Shown piece after piece: positions 10,351-61,234 of a stretch of DNA of 64,000 bases (position 1 is its first letter; each line of letters opens with the position of its first letter). The position numbers and the translations under genes are program-made. This stretch comes from a bacterium. GTDB lineage: Bacteria; Patescibacteriota; Minisyncoccia; JAHIHE01; JAGLIN01. The stretch spans positions 5,675-69,674 of the forward strand of contig DAOWDU010000011.1 in NCBI GenBank assembly GCA_030638825.1, written 5' to 3'. The notes beneath the pieces are model-generated. The model had not been told where the DNA came from. It searched no databases and was given only the letters and a program-made list of their open reading frames with translations.

Positions 10351-10514
10351 GAGCGTCATGTAAACATTAAAACATATAAACATTTAAACAAGTTGCGTAA
10401 TAAAGAATTTAATTCAAGAATAAAGTTTAGTGGTTTCTTTTTTATTTTTTACTGAAATCTTTATTCTAAAATTTGTTTATTTGTTTATATGTTTTAATGT
10501 TTATATGAACCCTG

Positions 10515-11236: not shown

Positions 11237-11361
11237 ATAATTTGGTTACTATTAATCTTTTAATTTAACTATTTTATACTACTTTATAAGAGAGGATTAG
11301 TCAAGGCGAGCGCATATAAATATATAAACATATAAACATTTAAACAAAGTTTATATCATTT

Positions 11362-13702: not shown

Positions 13703-14233
13703 TTATATTTCTATTTCTTCTATTAAAAATAATTTTATATAAGAGTCAACGGAATACTTTCTTAAGATGAGTTCAGTTTCTTTTTGGACGCTATAGGGAC
13801 AAATCCAGATACTTTGCTGAAGCATTTTATATTCTAAGAGACGAAGTTTTTCTCGCAACAAATCTCGCAGGTGTCTTTTTTCTTCGGGAATGTCAAAAAT
13901 TATCATCTGCCATTTCCCGTCTGGTCTTTTTTGTTTATTTTTTATTTTAAGTTTTGCTTTTAAAACTTTTTCAGCTCCTTTTTTTGTTAGAATAATTCCT
14001 TCATTTTGCTCCAGATTTTTAATCTTAATATAACCATTCTTTTTCAGACGATAAATTAATTGTCTAAATTGTCCCTTTGTCTGTTTTCTTTTATATTGAT
14101 CTTTCAATTCACGGAGAGATGGATAGCAATATTCTTTCATTTTTCTATACGAAAAAATAGTAAAAGTTTTATCTAACTTTTCAGCGTGATTATAAACATC
14201 TAATAAAAATTTATCAGTAATTGGCAGTTTCAT
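13703..14233 (-). CDS. Winged-helix DNA-binding domain fused to a Cas2-like (VapD / PaaX C-terminal fold) domain. Orphan: no cas1 or CRISPR array nearby.
   Basis: The C-terminal block MIIFDIPEEKRHLRDLLREKLRLLEYKMLQQSIWICPY matches the Cas2 pattern (YDI..R.R..L...G.R.Q.SVFEC). The N-terminus has a wHTH pattern. Confidence 0.5.
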   Translation of the reverse strand: MKLPITDKFLLDVYNHAEKLDKTFTIFSYRKMKEYCYPSLRELKDQYKRKQTKGQFRQLIYRLKKNGYIKIKNLEQNEGIILTKKGAEKVLKAKLKIKNKQKRPDGKWQMIIFDIPEEKRHLRDLLREKLRLLEYKMLQQSIWICPYSVQKETELILRKYSVDSYIKLFLIEEIEI

Positions 14234-14398: not shown

Positions 14399-15244
14399 TT
14401 AATTTATTAAATTCAAATACCACTTAATAATTTTCTCTCCCCAAAACAATCCCACAAAGGTTCCGATTATTAAAAATGGACCGAAGGGAATCATACTGCC
14501 CATTTTTTTCCTGCCAGCTAAAATTAGGAAAATGCCGATTACTGATCCGAGAATAAATGCTAAAAATAAAGCGATTAAAATTACTGGCCAGCCCAAAATC
14601 AGTCCCATTAAAAATGCCAATTTAACATCTCCTCCGCCCATTCCTTTGCCTTTGGTAATGATAATTATTGTGTAGAAAAATCCGCCTGCGAGAATAGCTG
14701 CGATAAACGGATTAAAAATAGTTGTTAAATTTCCAATTTCCAATTTCCAATTTCCAATCAATTCCCAATGATTAAATTTCAAAATTTCAAATAATTTATA
14801 AATGAAGGTTATAATAATCGCAGGATAAATTATTTTGTCTGGAATAATATAGTGTTTTAGGTCATAGACAAAAATAACAATAAAAGTGGAACTGACATAA
14901 AACAGAAATAATAGATAAAGAAATTGAAAATTGAAAATTGAAAATTCACTGAAAATTGAAAATTGAAAATTGAAAATTAGCACAAATAATATCCCTGTCA
15001 TAATTTCTACCAACGGATACTGAATAGAAATTTTATTGCTACAGTATCGGCACTTGCCTTTTAAAAATATAAAGCTAAAAACTGGAATTAAGTCTTGCCA
15101 ATTTAAGATGTGTTTGCAGGATAAGCATCTCGATCTGTCATTTACTATTTTTTCTCCGTTTTCTAATCTATAAATGACCACATTCAAAAAACTGCCGATA
15201 ATCAGGCCGAAGATGAAAATAATTATATTGTATAAAATAAGCAT
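14399..15244 (-). CDS. pilD: Prepilin peptidase (A24 family), carrying two internal heptamer tandem-repeat arrays
   Basis: Zn-binding cysteines CLSC...CRYC, peptidase motif GGGDVKL, and multi-TM topology. Confidence 0.9.
   Translation of the reverse strand: MLILYNIIIFIFGLIIGSFLNVVIYRLENGEKIVNDRSRCLSCKHILNWQDLIPVFSFIFLKGKCRYCSNKISIQYPLVEIMTGILFVLIFNFQFSIFSEFSIFNFQFLYLLFLFYVSSTFIVIFVYDLKHYIIPDKIIYPAIIITFIYKLFEILKFNHWELIGNWKLEIGNLTTIFNPFIAAILAGGFFYTIIIITKGKGMGGGDVKLAFLMGLILGWPVILIALFLAFILGSVIGIFLILAGRKKMGSMIPFGPFLIIGTFVGLFWGEKIIKWYLNLIN
14728..14769. repeat. Heptamer tandem repeat (ttccaat) x4-5 inside pilD
   Basis: Four perfect copies at 14731-14758 plus a degenerate copy. The unit length is not a multiple of 3. 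Confidence 0.85.
14920..14978. repeat. Heptamer tandem repeat (gaaaatt) x7-8 inside pilD, interrupted by cact
   Basis: Three copies at 14926-14946, then cact, then four copies at 14951-14978. Confidence 0.85.
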
Positions 15245-15278: not shown

Positions 15279-15689
15279 TTATGGAAAAGTGCATCCGTTT
15301 TGAGTGCAATCGGCAGTGGCAGTGGTTGTGCCATCTGACGCTTTTGCTTCGTTAGTTGCGGTTATAGTATAATTGAATGTCCCGGCTCCACTTGTGCCAC
15401 AATTTTGATCTGGAGCTGCTGATAGACTTGTAAAAGTGATGTCATGATCATAAGTGGTTCCAGTAAAATCTTCTACAACGATATCTCGATCATCGCAAAT
15501 GCTTACTATTCCTGGCACTGTTCTGCTTGCTTCTGCTTTAAACGCCGCATCTTTAGCTTTTTGCCTTGTGTTGTTTAAAGTTGTCATCACGATACTTGCT
15601 AAAATACCAATAATTGCGATAACAACCAAAAGTTCAATTAGGGTAAAGCCCTTTGAGTTTCTCGGGGTGAGCTCTTGTTTAAATTCCAT
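15279..15689 (-). CDS. Type IV pilin / pseudopilin (N-terminal methylation motif)
   Basis: [22 protein letters not shown] prepilin leader plus hydrophobic helix. C-terminal Cys pair CTQNGC. Confidence 0.85.
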
Positions 15690-15818: not shown

Positions 15819-16211
15819 CTAATTAAAAGTGCATCCATTTTGAGTGCAGGAAGCAACAAGAGTAACTGCAGGTGTAGCTGAATTCAATGCGCCATTATCC
15901 GCAGTTACAGTATAACTAAACGTTCCAACTCCACTTGTGCCACAATCTTGAGTTATTGTGGCAAAAACAGTAGCATGAATATAAGTGGAACCAGTAAAAT
16001 CAGTTACAACGATAGGATCATCATCACAAATACTAACTAATCCTGGTACTGTTCCAGCTGCTTCTGCTTTAAATGCTACATTTTTAGCTTTTTGTCTCGC
16101 GCTGTTTAAACTTACCATTACAACTGAAGCTAAAATACCGATAATTGCGATAACAACCAATAACTCAATCAAAGTAAAACCTTTCTTATTTATTTTTAAC
16201 ATTCGTTTCAC
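15819..16211 (-). CDS. Type IV pilin paralog
   Basis: [24 protein letters not shown]-terminus. C-terminal CTQNGCTF, as in the neighbouring pilin. Confidence 0.85.
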
Positions 16212-16225
16212 CTCCTTTCCTAATT

Positions 16226-16510
16226 TTATTTAGTTACAATTTTTAAAAGTTCTTTAAAATGCGAAAGAGCGTTTGGCAATTGCTTGTAAATTCTTTCAGC
16301 ATCATCTTCATTATAAGTATGAACAGTTTCATTTCTCATATCCACAAACTCAATCCAGTCCTCAGTGTAATTTATAATGCTCTGCCGATAAGCTTCACGG
16401 AAACATTCTTTGGGAGAAGCGCAAACAACTCCTTTTTCTTCTTCAAGAAGAGCTTTCAACATTTTCCATGAAATATCCAAAGTAAATTCAAACCGCTGAA
16501 TCTCTGACAA
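16226..16510 (-). CDS. HEPN-domain protein of the nucleotidyltransferase substrate-binding (HI0074) family. The N-terminal part appears displaced into another frame (16511-16595).
   Basis: [19 protein letters not shown] and the R-x4-H HEPN motif RNETVH. An ATG at 16593-16595 overlaps the MNT stop (ATGA coupling) but reads a different frame. Confidence 0.65.
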
Positions 16511-16591
16511 TATCTGTTTCGGGCACAGCCAAAACTTCTTCTAAACGCCTTACCGCTTTTTCAAATTGCTTGATTGTAATTTCAGATTTTG

Positions 16592-16897
16592 TCATAGCGC
16601 TTCAATCTTTTGTTTAGCCAGATTATAAAAATCAGGAGATACTTTTTTAAAATCAACAACATCAATTTTGTAAAGAATTGGCAAATTTTCAAAATCCTCT
16701 TTAATTTTTGCCATCACTTGCCAAGAAATTTCTTTCTCTCCCTCAATTCCAAGATCAATATCAGATCGCTCATTTCCCTTTCCCATAACCCTTGAGCCGA
16801 AGAAGAAAATTTTGTTCTGGTCAAGATTTAAATAGTTGCCAATAATATCTTTGGTTTCCTTTTTAAATTTATCCAAAGAATAAAATTCAAGTCTCAT
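16592..16897 (-). CDS. Minimal nucleotidyltransferase (MNT), partner of the downstream HEPN protein
   Basis: Pol-beta-type NTase motif GSRVMGKGNERSDIDLGIEG. Confidence 0.8.
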   Translation of the reverse strand: MRLEFYSLDKFKKETKDIIGNYLNLDQNKIFFFGSRVMGKGNERSDIDLGIEGEKEISWQVMAKIKEDFENLPILYKIDVVDFKKVSPDFYNLAKQKIEAL

Positions 16898-16950: not shown

Positions 16951-17041
16951 AGCATCAATACGAGAACATTAAAACATTCAAACAAAATTTTGAAATCGCA
17001 GTATGTTTAAATGTTAATATGTTTATATGTTAACATGACGC

Positions 17042-18523: not shown

Positions 18524-18524
18524 A

Positions 18525-18599
18525 TTGTTAAATTGTTAAATTGTTAAATTGTTAAATTGTTATGCGTGGCATAGCAATATTTTTATGCCATGCATAACA
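18525..18599. repeat. Octamer tandem repeat (attgttaa) x about 5, then a 15-bp inverted repeat (gttatgcgtggcata / tatgccatgcataac). It lies directly upstream of the response-regulator ATG.
   Basis: The tandem array spans 18525-18563, and the inverted repeat spans 18559-18573 / 18585-18599. The 21-mer atgcataacaatttaacaat recurs at 45370-45395. Confidence 0.7.
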
Positions 18600-18623
18600 A
18601 TTTAACAATGTAGCAATTTAATT

Positions 18624-21532: not shown

Positions 21533-22078
21533 TTATTCTTCGTTTCTCACCTTAACTTTCATTGAAGCGTTCTTTTCTATTTTCGGAAGTTTAACCGTAA
21601 GAATGCCGTTTTTGATTGTCGCTTCAACTCCTTCTGTTTTAATATCGCTTGGCAAAATAATTGAACGCGAAAAATTCCCCCAAAAACATTCTTGATAATA
21701 ATAATCGTCAGCTACGACATTGTCAGGATTTTCTCTCTTTCCTTTGATAGTCACCATATCGCTCGTAACGGAAATATCTAAGTTTTCAGGTCGGACGCCG
21801 CCAATAATTGATTTTACAACAATGAGTTCTTTTGTTTTGTAAACATCTACTGTCAACTGGCCTTCTTCGTTAATATCATCTTCTTTTCCTGAAAGCCATT
21901 CCTTGTCAATTTTTTTGTTTTCAGAATTATTCTCGTCAGTGTCTCCGTTGTCCGCTTCATTCTCGTTTGTTGTTTCTGTTTCTTTTTCTTCATCAGAATC
22001 AGAACTAACAATTCTGTTTAAAAATGATTTTTTTTGTTTTGTCATATTATTCATATTAACATTTAAATATATAAACAT
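21533..22078 (-). CDS. Hsp20/alpha-crystallin small heat-shock protein with an acidic N-terminal extension
   Basis: Alpha-crystallin domain: LTVDVYKTKELIVVKSIIGGVRPENLDISV ... GILTVKLPK. Confidence 0.75.
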   Translation of the reverse strand: MFIYLNVNMNNMTKQKKSFLNRIVSSDSDEEKETETTNENEADNGDTDENNSENKKIDKEWLSGKEDDINEEGQLTVDVYKTKELIVVKSIIGGVRPENLDISVTSDMVTIKGKRENPDNVVADDYYYQECFWGNFSRSIILPSDIKTEGVEATIKNGILTVKLPKIEKNASMKVKVRNEE

Positions 22079-22164
22079 TTAAACACAAATTTTAAAATAT
22101 AAAAAGCGACTGCTTGTTTATATGTTTACATGTTTACACGATTACATTATACCATTTTTAAAAA

Positions 22165-25100
22165 TTACAACAAGGACTTTATTTTTTCTTTCAGTTTTTT
22201 TATTTTTTTTTCGCTTTCCATAAATTTTTCTCTTTCTTTTTCAACAATTTCCCGCGGAGCATTGCCGACAAAATCATCATTGCCAAGTTTTGTTTTTATC
22301 TGGAAAATATATTTTTCTATATTTTCTATTTTTTTTTCTAAATTCTTTTTTTCTTTTTCTTTGTCAATTATTCCCTCTAAATAAATTTCAATATCGCCAA
22401 CAACTAAATAAACCGCGTCTTTGATTTTATCGTCCTTTTCTTTTATTTCTAATTTATCAATTCCAGTTCTGAGATTTTTGATTAAATGCGCTTGTGATTT
22501 GATAAATTCTTTTTTATTTCCAGCGTAAATTACAGCTTCAATTTTTTTACCTGGCTCAACCTTATATTCCGCGCGCGCGTTGCGAATGGCTTTAATAATA
22601 TTTTGAATTATTTCAAAATCGCGGGCTGTTGTGATTGTAGGGAACGGGCATGCCTGTTCCCTACAATCACGGTCAGCCCACTTTTCCACCATCAGTAAAT
22701 TTTCACTGTCTAAATTCTTCCAAATTTCTTCTGTCACAAACGGAATAAAAGGGTGAAATAAAATTAAAACTTGTTTTAAAATATAATTTAAAATCTCATT
22801 TTTATTTTTTTCAATTTTAGAAATTTCAATATACCAGTCAGCGAAATCGTTCCAGGTAAATTCTTTTATTTTTTCGCCAGCTTGCGAAAATTTATAATTA
22901 TTCAAATCATCTGTGACTTCTTTAGTTAAATTGTTTAGATTATTTAAGATCCATTTATCTGCTAATGTGGCATCAGAAGCTGGGCTTCCAATTGGAAGCC
23001 CAGCTTCTTTAGTATTATCAATATTCATAATAATATACCGTGAAACATTCCACAACTTATTCACAAAATTCCGATACCCTTCAACTTTTTCTTCATACAT
23101 CTTAATGTCATTTCCTGGACTGGATCCGATAATCATACTCAATCTCAAAGCGTCCGTTCCGTATTTCTCGATCATCTCGATCGGATCAATCCCATTTCCA
23201 AGAGACTTGCTCATTTTCTTTCCCTGCTTATCTCGTACCATTCCATGCAAATAAACATTTTCAAACGGGACTTCGCCAAGCGTATAAGTCGTCATCAAAA
23301 TCATTCTTGCCACCCAAAAAAACAAAATATCATAACCCGTTTCCATCACGCTTGTTGGATGAAACTTTTTCAAATCTGGACTATTCGCAACCCAATCTTC
23401 AAAAGTTTTATATTTCTCGTGATCCTGATTTAATAAAGTTGAAAATGTCCAAAGACCTGAGGAGAACCAGGTGTCTAGAGTGTCGGTGTCCTGTGTCCAG
23501 TTTTTTCCTTCTGGTGGATTAGTCCCAATATATATTTCTTGATTTTTATATTTCTTACCTTTCGGTATCATAGTATATACTATGGAACTATTATCAAATT
23601 TATTATTTAATTCATATTTCCATCCCGCTTGCCACTCTTTTGTTTTTCTCCAATCTTCATTAATCGCTTGCTCCCAAGTTCTATTTTTTAAAATTACATC
23701 TAGCGCTAACTGTGGAGCTTTGTGCGCAACAATAGCAATTTTTTTACCTTGATATTTATCTATTAAATCATTAAGAAAATCCCTGATTCTTTTTTCAACA
23801 TCTTTATAGCTCTCGCCCTTTGGAAATGGTTTGTCTATTACATTTTTTTCTATCACCAAAATTTCAGACGCACCAGCTTGTGTTAAATCTCCATAATCAC
23901 ACTCACGCAATCTTTCATCCTGAATGATTTTTACACCTCTATCACTAAACGTTAGGCTTGCAGAATCAACTGCTCGTTTCAAATCTGAACAAAATACAAT
24001 ATCAAATTTCTCATTTTCAATTGTTTTCTTTAAATCTTTTGACTGCTGAATTCCTAATTTTGATAATTTTACATCATAATGACCAGACGCTTTATTCTTC
24101 TCATTATCAATCGTCGTCCCATGAACAAAATAAGTAATATCAATTCCTGATTCCTGATTCCTGATTCCTGATTCATTTTTATACCAAACCGGAATCCGAT
24201 GCCCAAACCATAACTGACGGGAAATACACCAATCATGCAAATTTTCCATCCAATTATGATATGTTTTTTCAAATCTTTCAGGAATGATTTCAATTTTCTT
24301 GTCATTTTTTTCATCAGCTTTATTCACCACTTCCAAAGCAATTTCCTTCAAGGACTTATTTTGAAAATATTTATTTCCTCCAATTGTAATTTTCTTGTCA
24401 ACGGCGACAAACCATTGTTTTGATGGCAAAGGTTCAATCGGGGTATCACAGCGGTAGCAAATGCTTAAACTTTGATCTACTTCTTCAACTTTTTCAATTA
24501 AATTATTTTTCTCAAAATACTGGACTATTTTTTCTCGCGCTTCTAAAACTGTTAGTCCTTCATAATCTTTTCCTGCGTTCTCATTCATCTTCCCGTCTTC
24601 GCCAATAATTTTTATTTTCTCCAAATCATTTTTCTCTGCCATTTCCCAGTCAGTCATACTGTGCGCGGGAGTTACTCCTAATGCCCCAGTTCCAAACTTT
24701 ATTTCAACTTCTCTATCTGAAATAATTTTAATTTTATGTTTGCCATTTCCTAAATTTATTTCAAAAACTTTGCCAATATACTTTTTATATCTCTCATCTT
24801 TTGGATTAACAGCAACCGCTGTATCGCCTAACTTTGTTTCTGGTCTTGTTGTCGCGATTGTGATTGGAAAGTCTTTGTCATATTTAAAATAATACAGTTT
24901 CCCTTTTTGCTCTTCGTGTTCAACTTCATCATCCGCTAAAGTTGATTCGCATCTTGGGCACCAGTTGACAATTCTGTCTCCTCTATATATTAATTTATCA
25001 TTGAACATTTTTGTAAATACTTCCCTCACTGCGCGTGATAATCCATCATCAAGTGTGTATCTTTCCCTTGACCAATCGCAAGAAGAACCCATTTTTCTGG

Positions 25101-37821: not shown

Positions 37822-37928
37822 TGATTAACCTATAACTGAAAACAAATAACTTATAACTCGCGATGGCAAAAAAGAAAAGAGCGTTTCTATAATTTCTGTT
37901 CTTTGAATAGTGTTAATTTGAAATGCAT

Positions 37929-47195: not shown

Positions 47196-47339
47196 AATTC
47201 ATTTCTTACGCCGCTTAAAACAAATAAATAATAAGCCGAATTTTGTTTTCTGATATAAAATCAAAATGATAATCATCTATCTAGCCATACTATTGCTAGT
47301 ATGATCAAGCGAGCTACTTTTTTCCCAACTAACTTACAA

Positions 47340-47693
47340 CTTACAACTTACAATTTTAATATTGTTATTTGTTATGAGTTATAGGTTATAAGTTAGTCAG
47401 GATTTGCTCTTGCACCAGGCAGGGTTTACCATCATTTGCTGTCACCAGCAAGGAAAGAGCGTAGATTTAAATTTATAAAAATTCAAATCATCGCCCAACT
47501 TTTCACCTTTTATCATGTATAACATGATTAGTATAGTCTCTGTGGCACTTTCCCTATCCTAAAAAAATTAGAACGGTTGCCGTTAGCAACTGCCTGCTTC
47601 CAGGTTATTTTAAAGTAATCTGGGGTGTTCGGACTTTCCTCTCCTATTCTTTAAAAGAACAAAAGCGATTATCTAATTTACCATTTTAAGCTC
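47340..47693 (-). ncRNA. rnpB: RNase P RNA (bacterial type), ends approximate
   Basis: The non-coding region is GC-richer than its surroundings. The minus strand carries GAGGAAAGUCCGAAC (P4 5' strand), GGGAAAGUGCCACAGAGA, AAGGUGAAAAG, GGUAAACCCUGCCUGG and GCAAGAGCAAAU in canonical order. An extended -10 TGTATAAT lies at 47700-47707 (minus strand). Confidence 0.6.
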
Positions 47694-47751: not shown

Positions 47752-49809
47752 ATGGAAAATATTTTAGAAAGTTTAAATAAGAGACAGCAAAAGGCCGTTA
47801 CCGCGACGGACGGGCCGGTTTTGATAATTGCGGGACCGGGATCCGGGAAGACGAAAGTTTTAACGCATCGCATCGCTTATATTATAAAAAATAAGGCGGT
47901 CAGTCCGACTAATATTCTTGCGGTAACTTTTACGAATAAAGCTGCCCAGGAAATGAAAAGCAGGGTAGGCGTGTTGCTTGAGAAGATGGTTTATGCAAAT
48001 AATTCTAACTTTTATAAAAAATCATTTGACGATGACGCCCCTCACCCCAACCCTCTCCCGCGGGGAGAGGGAGTTTCCAGTTTCCAGTTTCCTGTCATTG
48101 GCACTTTTCATAGCATTTGTGTGAGAATTTTGCGGCAGGAGGCGGAGTTGATCGGCTATAAAAAAGGATTTACTATTTATGATGACAGTGACCAGCAAGC
48201 AATAATTAAAAAGATTATGAATAATTTACAGATAAGTCCAGAGCAGTTTAATCCGCGGGCGGTCTTGTCTCATATTTCTAACGCTAAAAATGAATTGAAA
48301 AGTCCGAAAGATTTTAGTGATATCGCCGACGGTTATTTTCAGGAACAGGTTAGTATTGTTTATAATGCGTATCAGAAAAAATTAAAAGATAATAATTCTT
48401 TGGATTTTGACGATTTAATTATGCAGACAATTTTATTGTTTTTAGACAAGCCGGAGATTTTGCGAAAATACCAAGATAAATTCCGTTATGTGATGGTTGA
48501 TGAATATCAAGACACGAATTACGCGCAATACAAACTGGTTGATTTATTAAGCAAAACTCATCGGAATTTATGCGTTGTTGGCGATGACTGGCAGAGTATT
48601 TACAAATGGCGCGGCGCGGACATTAGAAATATTTTGGATTTTGAGAAAAATTATTCTGAAGCGGAAGTTATTTTGCTAGAACAAAATTATCGATCAACGC
48701 AAACAATTTTAGACGCCTCATATCAAATAATTTCCCGCAATGTCAATCGCAAGGAGAAAAAGCTTTGGAGTGAAAAAGAGGCGGGCGAGCCGATCGTTAT
48801 TTACGAAGCGGCTGACGAAAAAGGAGAAGCAGAATTTGTTATTTCGGAAATTGCCAGATTAACAAATAATAAAATAAATTTAAAAGACATTGCGATTTTA
48901 TATCGCACAAACGCTCAATCAAGATCAATAGAGGAAGCATTTTTGCAATATGGCGTTCCCTATAAAATCGTCGGCGGTATAAAATTTTATCTGCGAAAAG
49001 AGGTAAAAGACATTATCGCCTATCTGCGGCTTATTCAAAATCCAAATGACACAGCGAGTCTGGAAAGAATTATCAATATTCCTAAAAGAGATATTGGACA
49101 GGTGACTTTCAGAAAGATAATGGCAGAAATGGAAAAGAGTGGAAACGATGTTATTGAAGCATTGTTTAATTGTAATTGTGAAAATATTCCAGAAGGCAAG
49201 ATTAAGAAAATAAAAAGCTTTGCGGAAATTATTCTAAAGTGCCAAGATAAAATTGACAAAATTAAAATTTCTGAATTGCTTACTTATCTTTTGAAAAGCA
49301 TTAATTATGAAAAGCATATCAAAGATGGAACTGATGATGGAGAAAAAAAATGGGAAAATGTGAAAGAGCTTTTTAGCGCTGTGGAAAAATACGATAATCT
49401 GCCGGCGAAAGAAAATTTGAAAATATTTTTAGAAGAAATCGCGCTGGCGACGGATTTAGATAAGATAGACGATTCGCAGGATGCCGTAACTTTAATGACG
49501 CTCCATTCTGCTAAGGGCCTTGAGTTCAGCGCTGTTTTTATAATTGGGATGGAAGAAGGATTGCTTCCTCATTCCAGAAGCATTCAGGATCCTTCTGAGA
49601 TGGAAGAGGAAAGAAGATTGTGTTATGTCGGAATTACAAGAGCGAAAAAGAAAGCGTATCTTATCTTCGCGAGAACCAGAAAAATTTACGGCTCAACGCA
49701 AGCAAATATGCCCTCCCGTTTCATTTCCGACATCCCAGAAGAGTTAGCGGAATTTAAGAGGCAGGAGTATAGTTATTTGGGAGAGGATGAAGTTGTTGAA
49801 GTTGATTAA
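47752..49809 (+). CDS. pcrA: ATP-dependent DNA helicase PcrA/UvrD. The start is reassigned to the ATG at 47752.
   Basis: LNKRQQKAV...GPVLIIAGPGSGKTKVLTHRIAYII (motif I), motifs II-VI, and the 2B domain. The ORF-track start at 47734 overlaps the TGCTATAAT -10 box. Confidence 0.9.
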   Translation: MENILESLNKRQQKAVTATDGPVLIIAGPGSGKTKVLTHRIAYIIKNKAVSPTNILAVTFTNKAAQEMKSRVGVLLEKMVYANNSNFYKKSFDDDAPHPNPLPRGEGVSSFQFPVIGTFHSICVRILRQEAELIGYKKGFTIYDDSDQQAIIKKIMNNLQISPEQFNPRAVLSHISNAKNELKSPKDFSDIADGYFQEQVSIVYNAYQKKLKDNNSLDFDDLIMQTILLFLDKPEILRKYQDKFRYVMVDEYQDTNYAQYKLVDLLSKTHRNLCVVGDDWQSIYKWRGADIRNILDFEKNYSEAEVILLEQNYRSTQTILDASYQIISRNVNRKEKKLWSEKEAGEPIVIYEAADEKGEAEFVISEIARLTNNKINLKDIAILYRTNAQSRSIEEAFLQYGVPYKIVGGIKFYLRKEVKDIIAYLRLIQNPNDTASLERIINIPKRDIGQVTFRKIMAEMEKSGNDVIEALFNCNCENIPEGKIKKIKSFAEIILKCQDKIDKIKISELLTYLLKSINYEKHIKDGTDDGEKKWENVKELFSAVEKYDNLPAKENLKIFLEEIALATDLDKIDDSQDAVTLMTLHSAKGLEFSAVFIIGMEEGLLPHSRSIQDPSEMEEERRLCYVGITRAKKKAYLIFARTRKIYGSTQANMPSRFISDIPEELAEFKRQEYSYLGEDEVVEVD
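48037..48092. repeat. In-frame palindromic element (gcccctcaccccaaCCCTCTCCCGCGGGGAGAGGGag) plus a 3x heptamer repeat (agtttcc), inside pcrA
   Basis: Perfect 21-bp palindrome at 48051-48071. The region encodes PHPNPLPRGEGVSSFQFPV, inserted between helicase motifs. Confidence 0.75.
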
Positions 49810-53386: not shown

Positions 53387-53432
53387 CAAGTTATGTTAGA
53401 ATGTTAGCATGTTAAAATGTTAAAATGAAATT

Positions 53433-57595: not shown

Positions 57596-58156
57596 ATGAC
57601 AATAGATATTAATAAAATTGGCAGTGGGGGGTTTATGAATCCAGATAAAATTGTGGAAGAACTCAATATTAAAAACGGGATGTTCGTTGCTGATTTTGGC
57701 TGTGGCGCTGGATATTTTACAATCCCAATCGCTAAAATAATAAAAAACAGCGGCAAAATTTACGCAATAGATGTTTTAAATGAATCGTTAGAAAATGTTT
57801 TAAGCAAAGCAAAATTATATGATTTGCTTAATATTAAAACTGTTCGGGCTAATATAGAAATAATTGGCGGATCAAAAATAGAAAGCGGTTCCGTTGATTT
57901 GGTAATTCTCGCCAATATACTTTTTCAATGCAATGATCATAGTTCGGTTTTGAACGAAGCTAAGAGAATCTTGAAGAATAATGGCAGTGTTGTTGTTGTA
58001 GATTGGATTCCCAAAAAAGTTCCTTTAGGACCAAAATATGAGCATTGCCTCAGCGAGGAAACTATAAAAAAACTTGCTATAAAGAATGGACTGAAAGTTG
58101 TCAGAAAAATAGACGCTGGAAATCAGCATTATGGGATGGTGTTGAAAAACATATAA
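57596..58156 (+). CDS. Class I SAM-dependent methyltransferase
   Basis: Motif I VADFGCGAGYFTIPIA. Confidence 0.8.
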   Translation: MTIDINKIGSGGFMNPDKIVEELNIKNGMFVADFGCGAGYFTIPIAKIIKNSGKIYAIDVLNESLENVLSKAKLYDLLNIKTVRANIEIIGGSKIESGSVDLVILANILFQCNDHSSVLNEAKRILKNNGSVVVVDWIPKKVPLGPKYEHCLSEETIKKLAIKNGLKVVRKIDAGNQHYGMVLKNI

Positions 58157-58216
58157 ACATATAAACATATAAACATATAAACATATAAACATATAAACAT
58201 ATAAACATATAAACAT
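58151..58216. repeat. Octamer tandem repeat (atataaac) x8.25, overlapping the methyltransferase stop codon
   Basis: Perfect copies from 58151. The unit is the core of the recurrent intergenic ACATATAAACA motif. Confidence 0.9.
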
Positions 58217-58263
58217 GGGGGCTTCAAAGGTTTGTTTAAATGTTTACATGCTTATATGTTTAA

Positions 58264-59646
58264 ATGATCTTTATGACTAAGCAAAAAATATTTTTAATTG
58301 GTTTTATACTTTCCGTCTTATCAATAATCGCCTGGTATATAGTTGGCTGTCCTTTGGCGGAGAAATGTCCGTTTGTGAGATTTGAAAAAGAAGAAGCTCC
58401 AAAGGTAATTCTGACATTTGTCGGTCCTACGGACAATGCCAGCGACTGGAACGCAATTTTTTCTAAGTTTAACGCTTATAAAAAAAGACCGGAAAATGGT
58501 TTTTTGGATGTGATTATAAAATACGAAAGGGTGTGCAATCCAATCTGCGATCAGGATGATTACGAAGATATGGTAAGAGAAAGGCAATATGAAGACGAGG
58601 GACCGAATATCTTTATGGCTTATAGCTCCTGGATTCCAAGACACAAGGATAAGCTTTTGCCTGCGCCAAAAGGAATGATGAATCTGGCGGAATTTGAGAA
58701 CACTTTTGCGCAAGTGACAAAAAATGACTTAACCGATGAAAAGGGAAATATTTACGCGCTTCCGTTTTATGTGGATACTTTGGCCTTGTATTATGATAAC
58801 GATGCTTTTTTAAATGAGAATTTAATAAAGCCTCCTATAAATTGGGATGAATTTGAGGAGTATGTGGAAAAATTAACTATTGTTGATGAAGATGGAAATT
58901 TTATAAGAGCTGGAGCTGCTTTTGGAGGCGGAAGCAATATAAATAGAGGCCAAGATATTTTAATGCTTCTAATAATGCAGAATAATATCAGCAGTAAGAC
59001 AGTAGGAAATTTGGTTTCATTTAATAATAAAGGTAGTCCTGCAGCGATAAATTTTTATACTGACTTTACCAATCCTAAAAAGAGATTTTATACCTGGAAT
59101 GAAAATCAAATGTATTCCATAGACGCTTTTACTCAGAAGAAAGCTGCGATGATGATTAATTATTCTCATCATATTGATAATGTAATTGAGAAAACGAGTA
59201 ATAATTTGAATTTTAAAATTGCTCCAATTCCTCAATTGGATAGAAATAGTAAAGTTAATTATGCTAGTTACTGGGTTCCTGTTGTTCCCAAAAAAGCTCC
59301 TTGCGGAAAAGAAGCAAAAACGAACGCGAATTGCTACAGTTTAGCTTGGGAATTTTTAGATTTTGCGGCTAAAAAACAAAATGCCAAATTATATTTAGAT
59401 TCCACAAAAAAACCTGCTGCTAATTTAGAACTTGCGAAAGAGCAATTTACAGATTTTAATGATCAGCGAAGCGTGTTTGCCGGACAGGTGTTTACGGCTA
59501 AAAGTTGGGAACATCCAGATAGCTCATTGAGCGATAAAATTTTAGTGAAAATGATAGATTCTATAATAACAACTAATCAAGAATTCAAAAAAAGTATTTT
59601 CGAAGCAATGGCTGTGGCTGCTAGATATGTTGATAGTTTGAATTAG
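58264..59646 (+). CDS. Extracellular solute-binding protein (family 1, sugar-type ABC substrate-binding protein). Orphan: no permease genes adjacent.
   Basis: N-terminal TM/lipobox-like anchor (IVGC), LPFYVDTLALYYDNDAF and PPINWDEF family-1 SBP blocks. Confidence 0.55.
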   Translation: MIFMTKQKIFLIGFILSVLSIIAWYIVGCPLAEKCPFVRFEKEEAPKVILTFVGPTDNASDWNAIFSKFNAYKKRPENGFLDVIIKYERVCNPICDQDDYEDMVRERQYEDEGPNIFMAYSSWIPRHKDKLLPAPKGMMNLAEFENTFAQVTKNDLTDEKGNIYALPFYVDTLALYYDNDAFLNENLIKPPINWDEFEEYVEKLTIVDEDGNFIRAGAAFGGGSNINRGQDILMLLIMQNNISSKTVGNLVSFNNKGSPAAINFYTDFTNPKKRFYTWNENQMYSIDAFTQKKAAMMINYSHHIDNVIEKTSNNLNFKIAPIPQLDRNSKVNYASYWVPVVPKKAPCGKEAKTNANCYSLAWEFLDFAAKKQNAKLYLDSTKKPAANLELAKEQFTDFNDQRSVFAGQVFTAKSWEHPDSSLSDKILVKMIDSIITTNQEFKKSIFEAMAVAARYVDSLN

Positions 59647-59857: not shown

Positions 59858-60011
59858 AAAGTCATATAAACATTTAAGCATATAAGCATTTAAATATGTT
59901 GAGACTTCAGCTTTTTGTTTATATGTTTAGGTGTTTACATGTTTACATGATGTTATTCTAATAAAAAAATGTTAATTCGTCAATTCCAATATTCAAAATA
60001 TTCAATTATTT

Positions 60012-61190: not shown

Positions 61191-61234
61191 CAAATTTAGT
61201 ATTTAGTATACAGTATTTAGTATTAAGCCAAAAA

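Follow-up and report, generated by a model that had tools for sequence, protein, structure and literature searches.

The opa genes of Neisseria carry CTCTT repeats in the region that codes for the signal peptide; the tracts are long, and both ON and OFF alleles are seen among isolates. A comparable switch was proposed by a first-pass annotation for pilD, the prepilin peptidase gene of a bacterium belonging to the Patescibacteria (GTDB lineage Bacteria; Patescibacteriota; Minisyncoccia; JAHIHE01; JAGLIN01). Two tandem arrays of a 7-nucleotide (nt) unit lie inside this gene, and the gain or loss of a unit was taken to frameshift pilD and so turn the maturation of all pilins on or off. In the candidate phyla radiation (Patescibacteria), type IV pili are regarded as key to attachment and to the uptake of DNA, and given this role, a genuine pilus switch would matter. 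The arrays were analyzed here in a 64,000-nt stretch of DNA, referred to as the window (GenBank assembly GCA_030638825.1, contig DAOWDU010000011.1, positions 5,675 to 69,674 of the forward strand), and in related genomes. They are probably what survives, in frame, of a mutational or insertional process common in the lineage; protein loops tolerate them, and no switch could be demonstrated.

Heptamer repeats in other bacteria

A well-described heptamer switch is that of neuO in Escherichia coli K1, in which an AAGACTC repeat is present in 3 to 53 copies (mode 20), 65.6% of 64 genomes are OFF, and the protein is made only when the repeat number is divisible by 3 (PMC13001214). The pilD arrays are like neuO in that a 7-nt unit lies within the coding region and is translated. 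They differ in position and behavior, since the neuO repeats are found in the 5′ region, whereas those of pilD number about 4 units in mid-gene loops, show no copy-number variation in near-identical strains, and have given no reliable OFF allele. The likeness to opa is found in relatives of the window genome, in which a non-triplet repeat is translated in the cleaved leader of prepilins. Unlike the opa tracts, however, these leader arrays have 3–4.6 units and are all in frame, and the prepilins of the window itself carry no arrays.

Another comparison is offered by long simple-sequence repeats (LSSRs). According to the summary of Mrazek 2007 given in PMC4679880, heptanucleotides are the commonest LSSR class in repeat-rich prokaryotes; the same summary describes LSSR heptamers as mostly intergenic and non-triplet units as disfavored in coding DNA. 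Like LSSRs, the short tandemly repeated repetitive (STRR) heptamers of cyanobacteria, and the TAACTGA repeat of Beggiatoaceae, the arrays considered here are lineage-specific and prefer 7 nt over other non-triplet periods, a preference that is attributed to polymerase slippage. Unlike LSSRs and STRRs, they are mostly intragenic, in frame, and concentrated in pilus genes.

Small mobile sequences provide a third comparison. Rickettsia palindromic elements (RPEs) occur in unrelated genes, among them housekeeping genes, where they keep the reading frame and sit at positions that the fold and function of the protein allow (PMC10969869). Here, too, small repeated DNA is inserted in frame into unrelated genes. 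However, RPEs are palindromic, about 100–150 bp long, and fall into defined families, whereas the sequences described below are heptamer arrays of 20–60 nt and/or a 30-nt double hairpin, whose mobility we infer. In Nostoc, small dispersed repeats (SDRs), which are very small hairpin-forming elements, reportedly lie inside heptamer arrays and conserved coding sequence. They resemble a 30-nt GC-rich core found within the (AATTTTC)n arrays of one relative (locus L002), although phylum and sequences are different and the window's pilD arrays have no core. Heptamer microsatellites, heptanucleotide phase variation, and in-frame mini-insertions are all already known; what is unusual is that non-triplet arrays should be mostly intragenic. 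No account of in-frame heptamer arrays that recur at the same sites in the PilD loops and prepilin leaders of Patescibacteria turned up in the literature search.

Two heptamer arrays inside pilD

The pilD gene (14399–15244, minus strand) is an intact open reading frame (ORF) of 281 amino acids (aa), recognized by its ORF, its Pfam matches (A24_N_bact, 2e-35; Peptidase_A24, 5e-14), and its invariant residues. C40, C43, C65, C68, D128, and G203-G205-D206 are invariant across an alignment of 38 PilD homologs (57–81% identity, from Parcubacteria or Patescibacteria according to their sources), and the catalytic Asp pair, D128 and D206, the second within GxGD, is intact. Judged by its sequence, the product is a prepilin peptidase of MEROPS family A24, with both defining domains and the Cys motifs present.

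The two arrays are real, as seen both in the sequence and by Tandem Repeats Finder. The first, site A (14921–14978, minus strand), reads (AATTTTC)x4.1-AGTG-(AATTTTC)x3.7 on the coding strand and encodes residues ~89–106, FNFQFSIFSEFSIFNFQF. Tandem Repeats Finder reports it as period 7 with 8.7 copies and 81% matches. It had been described as a single (gaaaatt) run of 7–8 copies; the period-7 array is there, but it consists of two perfect sub-arrays (14921–14946, 3.7 copies, and 14950–14978, 4.1 copies) with a phase-shifting 'cact' between them. The second, site B (14728–14758, minus strand), reads (GGAAATT)x4.4 on the coding strand and encodes residues ~162–172, IGNWKLEIGNL; Tandem Repeats Finder gives AATTTCC x4.4 with 100% matches. 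A degenerate continuation of site B (14759–14791, minus strand) is resolved by the same program into CAATTCCCAAT x2 and AAATTTCA x2.2 and encodes KFNHWEL. The earlier account of both translations as F/Q/S/I inserts holds for one array but not for the IGNWKLEIGNL that comes from (GGAAATT)n. The non-triplet units lie well inside the reading frame (codons ~89–106 and ~162–172 of 281) and upstream of D128 and/or D206, so the gain or loss of one unit would indeed frameshift pilD.

Chance and A+T-rich low complexity can be set aside as the source of the arrays, having been ruled out by codon shuffles and a 21-mer search. Five perfect period-7 arrays of at least three copies are present in the coding DNA of the window, compared to none in 200 within-gene codon shuffles, and the 21-mer search yielded 6 matches where 0.25 would be expected. 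The window holds seven period-7 arrays in total, five of them inside ORFs, versus 0 to 2 for each of periods 4–6 and 8–12; the window scan found no arrays of period 5, 6, or 9–12, and those of period 8 were confined to intergenic DNA. The pilD arrays are also not assembly artifacts, because they are reproduced base for base in the independent assembly of a near-identical strain (L102). A search of Rfam returned no family at the pilD arrays.

The position of the arrays in the protein can be seen in an AlphaFold model of PilD (pLDDT 78.9). Site A covers the end of helix 75–97, a loop (pLDDT below 50 at residues 100–104), and the start of helix 106–131, and site B falls within the loop that connects helices 136–154 and 170–197, with pLDDT below 50 at residues 158–168. 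The model thus places both arrays as insertions in flexible, insertion-tolerant loops between transmembrane helices. Loop insertions had been expected by the first-pass annotation, and the alignment with orthologs bears this out: all length variation among the 38 homologs is found at the two array sites, and the rest of the protein is conserved. Across the alignment, the two sites exchange FNFQFSIFNEFSIFNFQ, IGNWKLEIGNL, NIQYSIF, and peptides encoded by a GC-rich hairpin (SAQGGPALGWQ or PAQGWSALGG).

Heptamer arrays across the lineage

The survey of relatives was based on pilD loci from two sources, a DNA scan by motif that covered one genome for each species and a metagenome scan, which together gave 101 loci from Patescibacteria; the genome scan relied on motifs downstream of the arrays. 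These 584 kb of DNA contain 34 perfect period-7 arrays, compared to at most 5 for each of periods 5, 6, and 8–12; period 4, with 16 arrays, is an exception. Sixteen of the 34 are inside pilD, and at least 27 are inside ORFs. The propensity for 7-bp repeats that had been suspected from this genome is therefore real, both in the window and across the lineage.

The commonest unit is AATTTTC, with 7 arrays inside pilD and 6 outside. Perfect (AATTTTC)n is found at site A even in Microgenomates-type PilD of 40–44% identity, in which the flanking protein is quite different, and minimal PilD homologs retain at this site only IFNFQ (ATTTTCAATTTTCAA), a two-copy seed. The composite (AATTTTC)4-AATG-(AATTTTC)3 is also present at site B of one locus (L085) and inside an Elp3 homolog. 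The repeated, in-frame colonization of coding DNA by 7-bp arrays and mini-hairpins, in the same loops over large evolutionary distances, has been little described.

Translation passes through a heptamer array in each of the three phases, so its unit has to be stop-free in three frames, and the coding arrays all satisfy this on the coding strand. TGA would occur in an array of GAAAATT, the reverse complement of AATTTTC; the unit at site B is the stop-free GGAAATT instead. This stop filter accounts for the near-perfect reverse complementarity of the two window arrays (89% over 27 nt) and for their predicted pairing in the mRNA.

Outside pilD, about 11 of the 18 heptamer arrays lie in prepilin leaders, just upstream of the cleavage site between G and FTLIEL, and all of these are in frame (for example, MKFSIFNFQFSNKKG followed by FTLIEL). 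The loci contain about 301 prepilin-like ORFs, and since the leaders of these total only about 11 kb, the enrichment is large, with the qualification that the loci were chosen around pilD. Three leader arrays have an ATG in the repeat: L007 5887–5915 (TGTTCCA), L004 5169–5192 (CATGGAA), and L072 5031–5056 (AATTATG). Such units give a start codon in each frame; they would protect the gene from the effects of slippage and would not act as a switch.

Two further arrays in the window, in valS and pcrA, had been pointed out before, and both are present and in frame. The valS array (24143–24174, minus strand; (GGAATCA)x4.6 on the coding strand) encodes ESGIRNQESGI. It forms the N-terminal edge of an insertion of ~225 aa relative to the valyl-tRNA synthetase (ValRS) 1GAX, and the insertion is a His_Phos_1 domain (Pfam, 1.5e-31). 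This domain occupies codons 448–672 (~23497–24171, minus strand), where the Thermus thermophilus ValRS has ~28 residues; at this site, the valS genes of the close relatives L107 and L109 carry inserts that are shorter and different. In pcrA, the insert (48036–48092, plus strand) begins with a GC-rich hairpin, CCCTCTCCCGCGGGGAGAGGG (48036–48071), which sits in a genome of 34% G+C and is followed directly by (AGTTTCC)x3.0 (48072–48092); the array is inside an insertion of ~31 aa relative to PcrA 1PJR.

All four tracts, namely the two in pilD and those in valS and pcrA, are placed where extra residues are tolerated. The arrays of valS and pcrA, both presumed essential genes, cannot be there for on/off switching. 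For the same reason, frameshifted intermediates would not have been possible, and these arrays would have arisen in single frame-preserving steps. This speaks for multi-unit events or the insertion of ready-made modules and against slippage one unit at a time. Both arrays could also be used as internal negative controls when slippage in pilD is studied at the level of sequencing reads.

A probable mutational or insertional origin

The explanation we favor is that of in-frame survivors. A process found throughout the Patescibacteria would create and turn over A+T-rich, stop-free heptamer arrays and, in relatives of the window genome, would also insert a 30-nt double hairpin, rich in G+C, within the arrays. 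Every version that breaks the reading frame or hits structured protein would be lost through purifying selection. The survivors would then be seen in PilD loops A and B, in prepilin leaders (which are cut off by PilD), in linkers of housekeeping genes, in RNA genes, and in spacers. The arrays at site A may regrow from the conserved IFNFQ seed and/or be copied as a module, (AATTTTC)4-A(A/G)TG-(AATTTTC)3. A one-unit slip would inactivate pilD and is best regarded as an occasional deleterious mutation and not as a programmed switch. Arrays of this kind also inform how the proteins of streamlined genomes gain loop insertions.

The frame of pilD is preserved in the loci surveyed. In all 101 loci, pilD was recovered as a single tblastn segment with an open frame. 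At least 2.7 perfect heptamer copies are present at site A or B in 19 of these loci, and all 19 are in frame; if only one-third of alleles were ON, as in neuO, the probability of this outcome would be ~1e-9. Copy numbers were also compared across strains. Exact look-ups of the window's PilD and of P0001 yielded no contig; the cluster member P0121 yielded one. L102 is 99.2–99.6% identical to the window over 5.9 kb and has 7 substitutions in pilD, but its array copy numbers are equal at both sites. Similarly, no array length variants were seen among the full-length members of 10 clusters formed at 90% identity (49 members); the length differences within these clusters are N- or C-terminal or are truncations.

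The process itself can be observed between L107 and L109, which are 2.7% apart and differ by 11 insertions or deletions (indels) in 12.2 kb. Three of these are 8-nt single-unit changes in intergenic octamer arrays, and one is a 47-nt duplication of a hairpin and array. In pilD, there is a 39-nt in-frame indel at site A that corresponds to five units plus the 4-nt joint, and the PilD of L109 (P0005) is without these 13 aa. It follows from these indels that slippage or recombination at short arrays is active in the lineage, and the changes in pilD are only frame-preserving. From these alignments, site A of pilD appears as an evolutionary indel hotspot at which only frame-preserving changes are seen between close relatives. 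The indels between L107 and L108, which are 99.97% identical, were also considered as slippage and rejected; they are non-repeat deletions or assembly differences, such as the loss of an IF2 G-motif.

Several points weigh against the explanation of the arrays as tolerated survivors. The loci from the genome scan are the best 80 of 525 by E-value, a choice that is slightly biased to intact genes. AATTTTC accounts for 13 of the 34 arrays although 42 classes of stop-free heptamers with six A/T exist, and composition together with the stop filter does not fully explain this choice. The concentration of arrays in type IV pilus genes is the pattern of a contingency system, and tolerance explains it only partly. 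A generator that lays down multi-unit in-frame arrays in one step is only proposed as the source of the process. The comparisons were made on assembled sequences, and low-frequency one-unit variants may be present in the population. Finally, there is one candidate OFF allele. In L121 (2501–3312; ERZ25039515 contig_34488), pilD is split into ORFs of 113 and 140 aa because the frame changes within the (TTTACTA)4 array of site A; with one more unit, the gene would be back in frame. In L122, a sister contig of that assembly, non-repeat sites carry at least three frameshifts, which makes the L121 allele ambiguous and a sequencing error possible.

A possible mobile mini-element

A possible but rather doubtful alternative is that the arrays are copies of a mobile mini-element. 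This would consist of (AATTTTC)n-A(A/G)TG-(AATTTTC)n, either alone or together with the 30-nt double hairpin, and would be copied and pasted in either orientation, sites A and B of pilD being opposite insertions. Such an element would be one form of the insertional process favored above. It would account for the same composite with its 4-nt joint at pilD site A in many lineages, as well as at site B of L085 and in an Elp3 gene, and for the reverse complementarity of sites A and B in the window. Also, the DNA of the module is far more conserved than the flanking gene. On the other side, the unit sequences are diverse, (AATTTTC)n is found in the window only in pilD, and the conserved IFNFQ seed can explain the recurrence at site A without mobility.

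Further evidence for such an element comes from the GC-rich core. The peptides SAQGGPALGWQ or PAQGWSALGG are found at either site in many PilD homologs, and in L002 they are encoded by a 30-nt element, TCCGCCCAAGGCGGACCAGCCTCGGGCTGG, that forms two adjacent small hairpins. This element lies seamlessly inside (AATTTTC)n at site A of L002, and its reverse complement lies inside a GGAAATT-type array at site B, so that both the arrays and the cores of the two sites are mutual reverse complements. An exact search of the fetched loci found the core in L002 only, and a mismatch-tolerant search added ligA of another genus and L105. In one 90% cluster, the core at site B is present in L105 and absent in L106. 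The same short element is thus found in frame in unrelated genes and is polymorphic for presence or absence between close relatives, as in known mini-insertions. The AATTTTC composite, found at PilD sites A and B and in Elp3, behaves likewise, with the 39-nt module that distinguishes L107 from L109. The pilD arrays of the window have no such core, and the pcrA insert of the window pairs a GC hairpin with a heptamer array.

Contigs frequently end within the GC core, and contig and scaffold breaks at the array sites are what would be expected of multi-copy DNA. However, the genome fragments examined showed neither a transposase nor terminal inverted repeats, nor an unambiguous target-site duplication. 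A phage was considered as the vector of the module and gave no lead: 2.9 million viral contigs contain 11 exact (AATTTTC)4 matches and no composite module.

A proposed phase-variable pilus switch

It is unlikely that pilD is a contingency locus of the kind first proposed, in which slipped-strand mispairing at either array would reversibly frameshift the gene and switch all pilin maturation, while the leader arrays of relatives would switch single pilins. The idea draws on the non-triplet units upstream of the catalytic Asp residues, on the concentration of heptamers in pilus genes including the 5′ leader region of about 11 prepilins, on the single-unit changes in intergenic arrays, on the split pilD of L121, and on neuO as proof that heptamer switches exist. 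However, the pilD tracts have only 3.7, 4.1, and 4.4 perfect units, short of hypermutable length when set against the 3–53 units of neuO. Copy-number variation with OFF alleles among close strains was not seen: the arrays of L102 are identical, the 49 cluster members show no length variants, and neither the 19 array-bearing pilD loci nor the roughly 11 prepilin leaders include an OFF allele. The similar arrays in valS and pcrA, the start codons in every frame of three leaders, and the error-prone assembly of L121 also argue against a working switch, and this part of the earlier proposal was not supported.

OFF alleles were also looked for among incomplete genes. The PilD N-terminal domain alone, used as a query, retrieved a large number of truncated PilD fragments; the ones that were examined stop at contig ends, scaffold gaps, or junctions with unrelated sequence and were rejected as OFF alleles. 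In L123, for example, a scaffold gap (10 N) lies inside the array. Breaks of contigs and scaffolds at arrays are compatible with heterogeneity and equally with multi-copy repeats. In two sibling samples, pilD is joined to unrelated DNA at site A (L103 3270–3365 and L104 1–40); this may reflect a larger insertion into the array that codes for the loop, or else an assembly that is chimeric or broken. For annotation and assembly, this means that breaks are to be expected at array sites and low-complexity inserts in presumed essential enzymes. It also means that a non-triplet coding repeat is not by itself sufficient to call phase variation in metagenome bins.

One could also consider an undescribed two-part system of the Patescibacteria, in which stop-free heptamers and the 30-nt double hairpin preferentially colonize type IV pilus genes, at PilD loops and prepilin leaders, and through rare one-unit slips bring about a low-frequency, reversible on/off change of the pili of these ultra-small episymbionts, with the pilD of the window as a master switch kept ON in the sampled populations. 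Such a system is improbable.

The weakest alternative concerns the RNA or the peptides themselves. Positions 14728–14754 and 14920–14946 are 89% reverse complementary, and all pairs are possible in the mRNA if G-U is allowed. The predicted fold of the pilD mRNA pairs the two arrays, with a minimum free energy of −62.8 compared to −36.9 ± 4.0 kcal/mol for shuffles (z = −6.5), and the predicted duplex encloses the segment that codes for the first catalytic Asp; strong A-B complementarity is also present in L001, L002, and L018. That a duplex of ~30 bp regulates translation or stability, or that the repeat peptides are functional, is nonetheless very improbable, since the arrays have direct orientation in L085, L009, L010, and L037, other homologs have one or both sites empty, unrelated repeat or hairpin peptides freely take the place of those in the loops, and a close relative does without the 13 aa at site A. 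That a long-range duplex is conserved in the mRNA was rejected because array orientation varies among homologs, and the A-B pairing is regarded as a by-product.

Neighboring genes and other repeat elements

Directly upstream of pilD are two prepilin genes with an N_methyl motif, one at 15279–15689 (minus strand, KGFTLIELL) and one at 15819–16211 (minus strand), and the leaders of both are without a repeat array in this genome. PilT, PilB, PilM, and a response regulator are found in the syntenic loci L102 and L107. Between ligA and pilD lies a gene for a 176-aa protein (13703–14233, minus strand) with a PaaX central Cas2-like domain (PF20803, 1.7e-22). A small gene pair (16226–16897, minus strand) is found between the prepilins and pilT and looks like a toxin-antitoxin-type module; it comprises a 101-aa product, which has a nucleotidyltransferase family match (NTP_transf_2/Polbeta, from the annotation of L102), and an adjacent 94-aa ORF.

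The intergenic DNA of the window contains elements of a related build, in which an octamer array is followed by a short hairpin core and an inverted octamer array, e.g., (TTGTTAAA)n...gcatggcat...atgccacgc...(TAACAATT)n. Elements of octamers and hairpins are present at 18524–18621, 10357–10507, 11313–11346, 17002–17037, 22053–22147, 53393–53427, 58147–58266, and 59863–59949. The element at 18542–18621 is a presence/absence difference between the window and L102, in which it is absent.

RNA genes carry arrays as well. The RNase P RNA gene (47216–47684, minus strand; Rfam RF00010, 131 bits) is 469 nt long compared to the 367-nt model, and inverted heptamer arrays, (AACTTAC)x3.3...(GTTATAA)x3.6, lie at 47331–47395; this is apparently an array-built hairpin inserted in the ribozyme. 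At 61194–61224, 37826–37858, 59863–59893, 10357–10390, and 10471–10507, tandem arrays of 7- or 8-nt units directly flank tRNA genes identified with Rfam, and in L107 and L109 a 7- or 8-nt tandem array also follows a tRNA.

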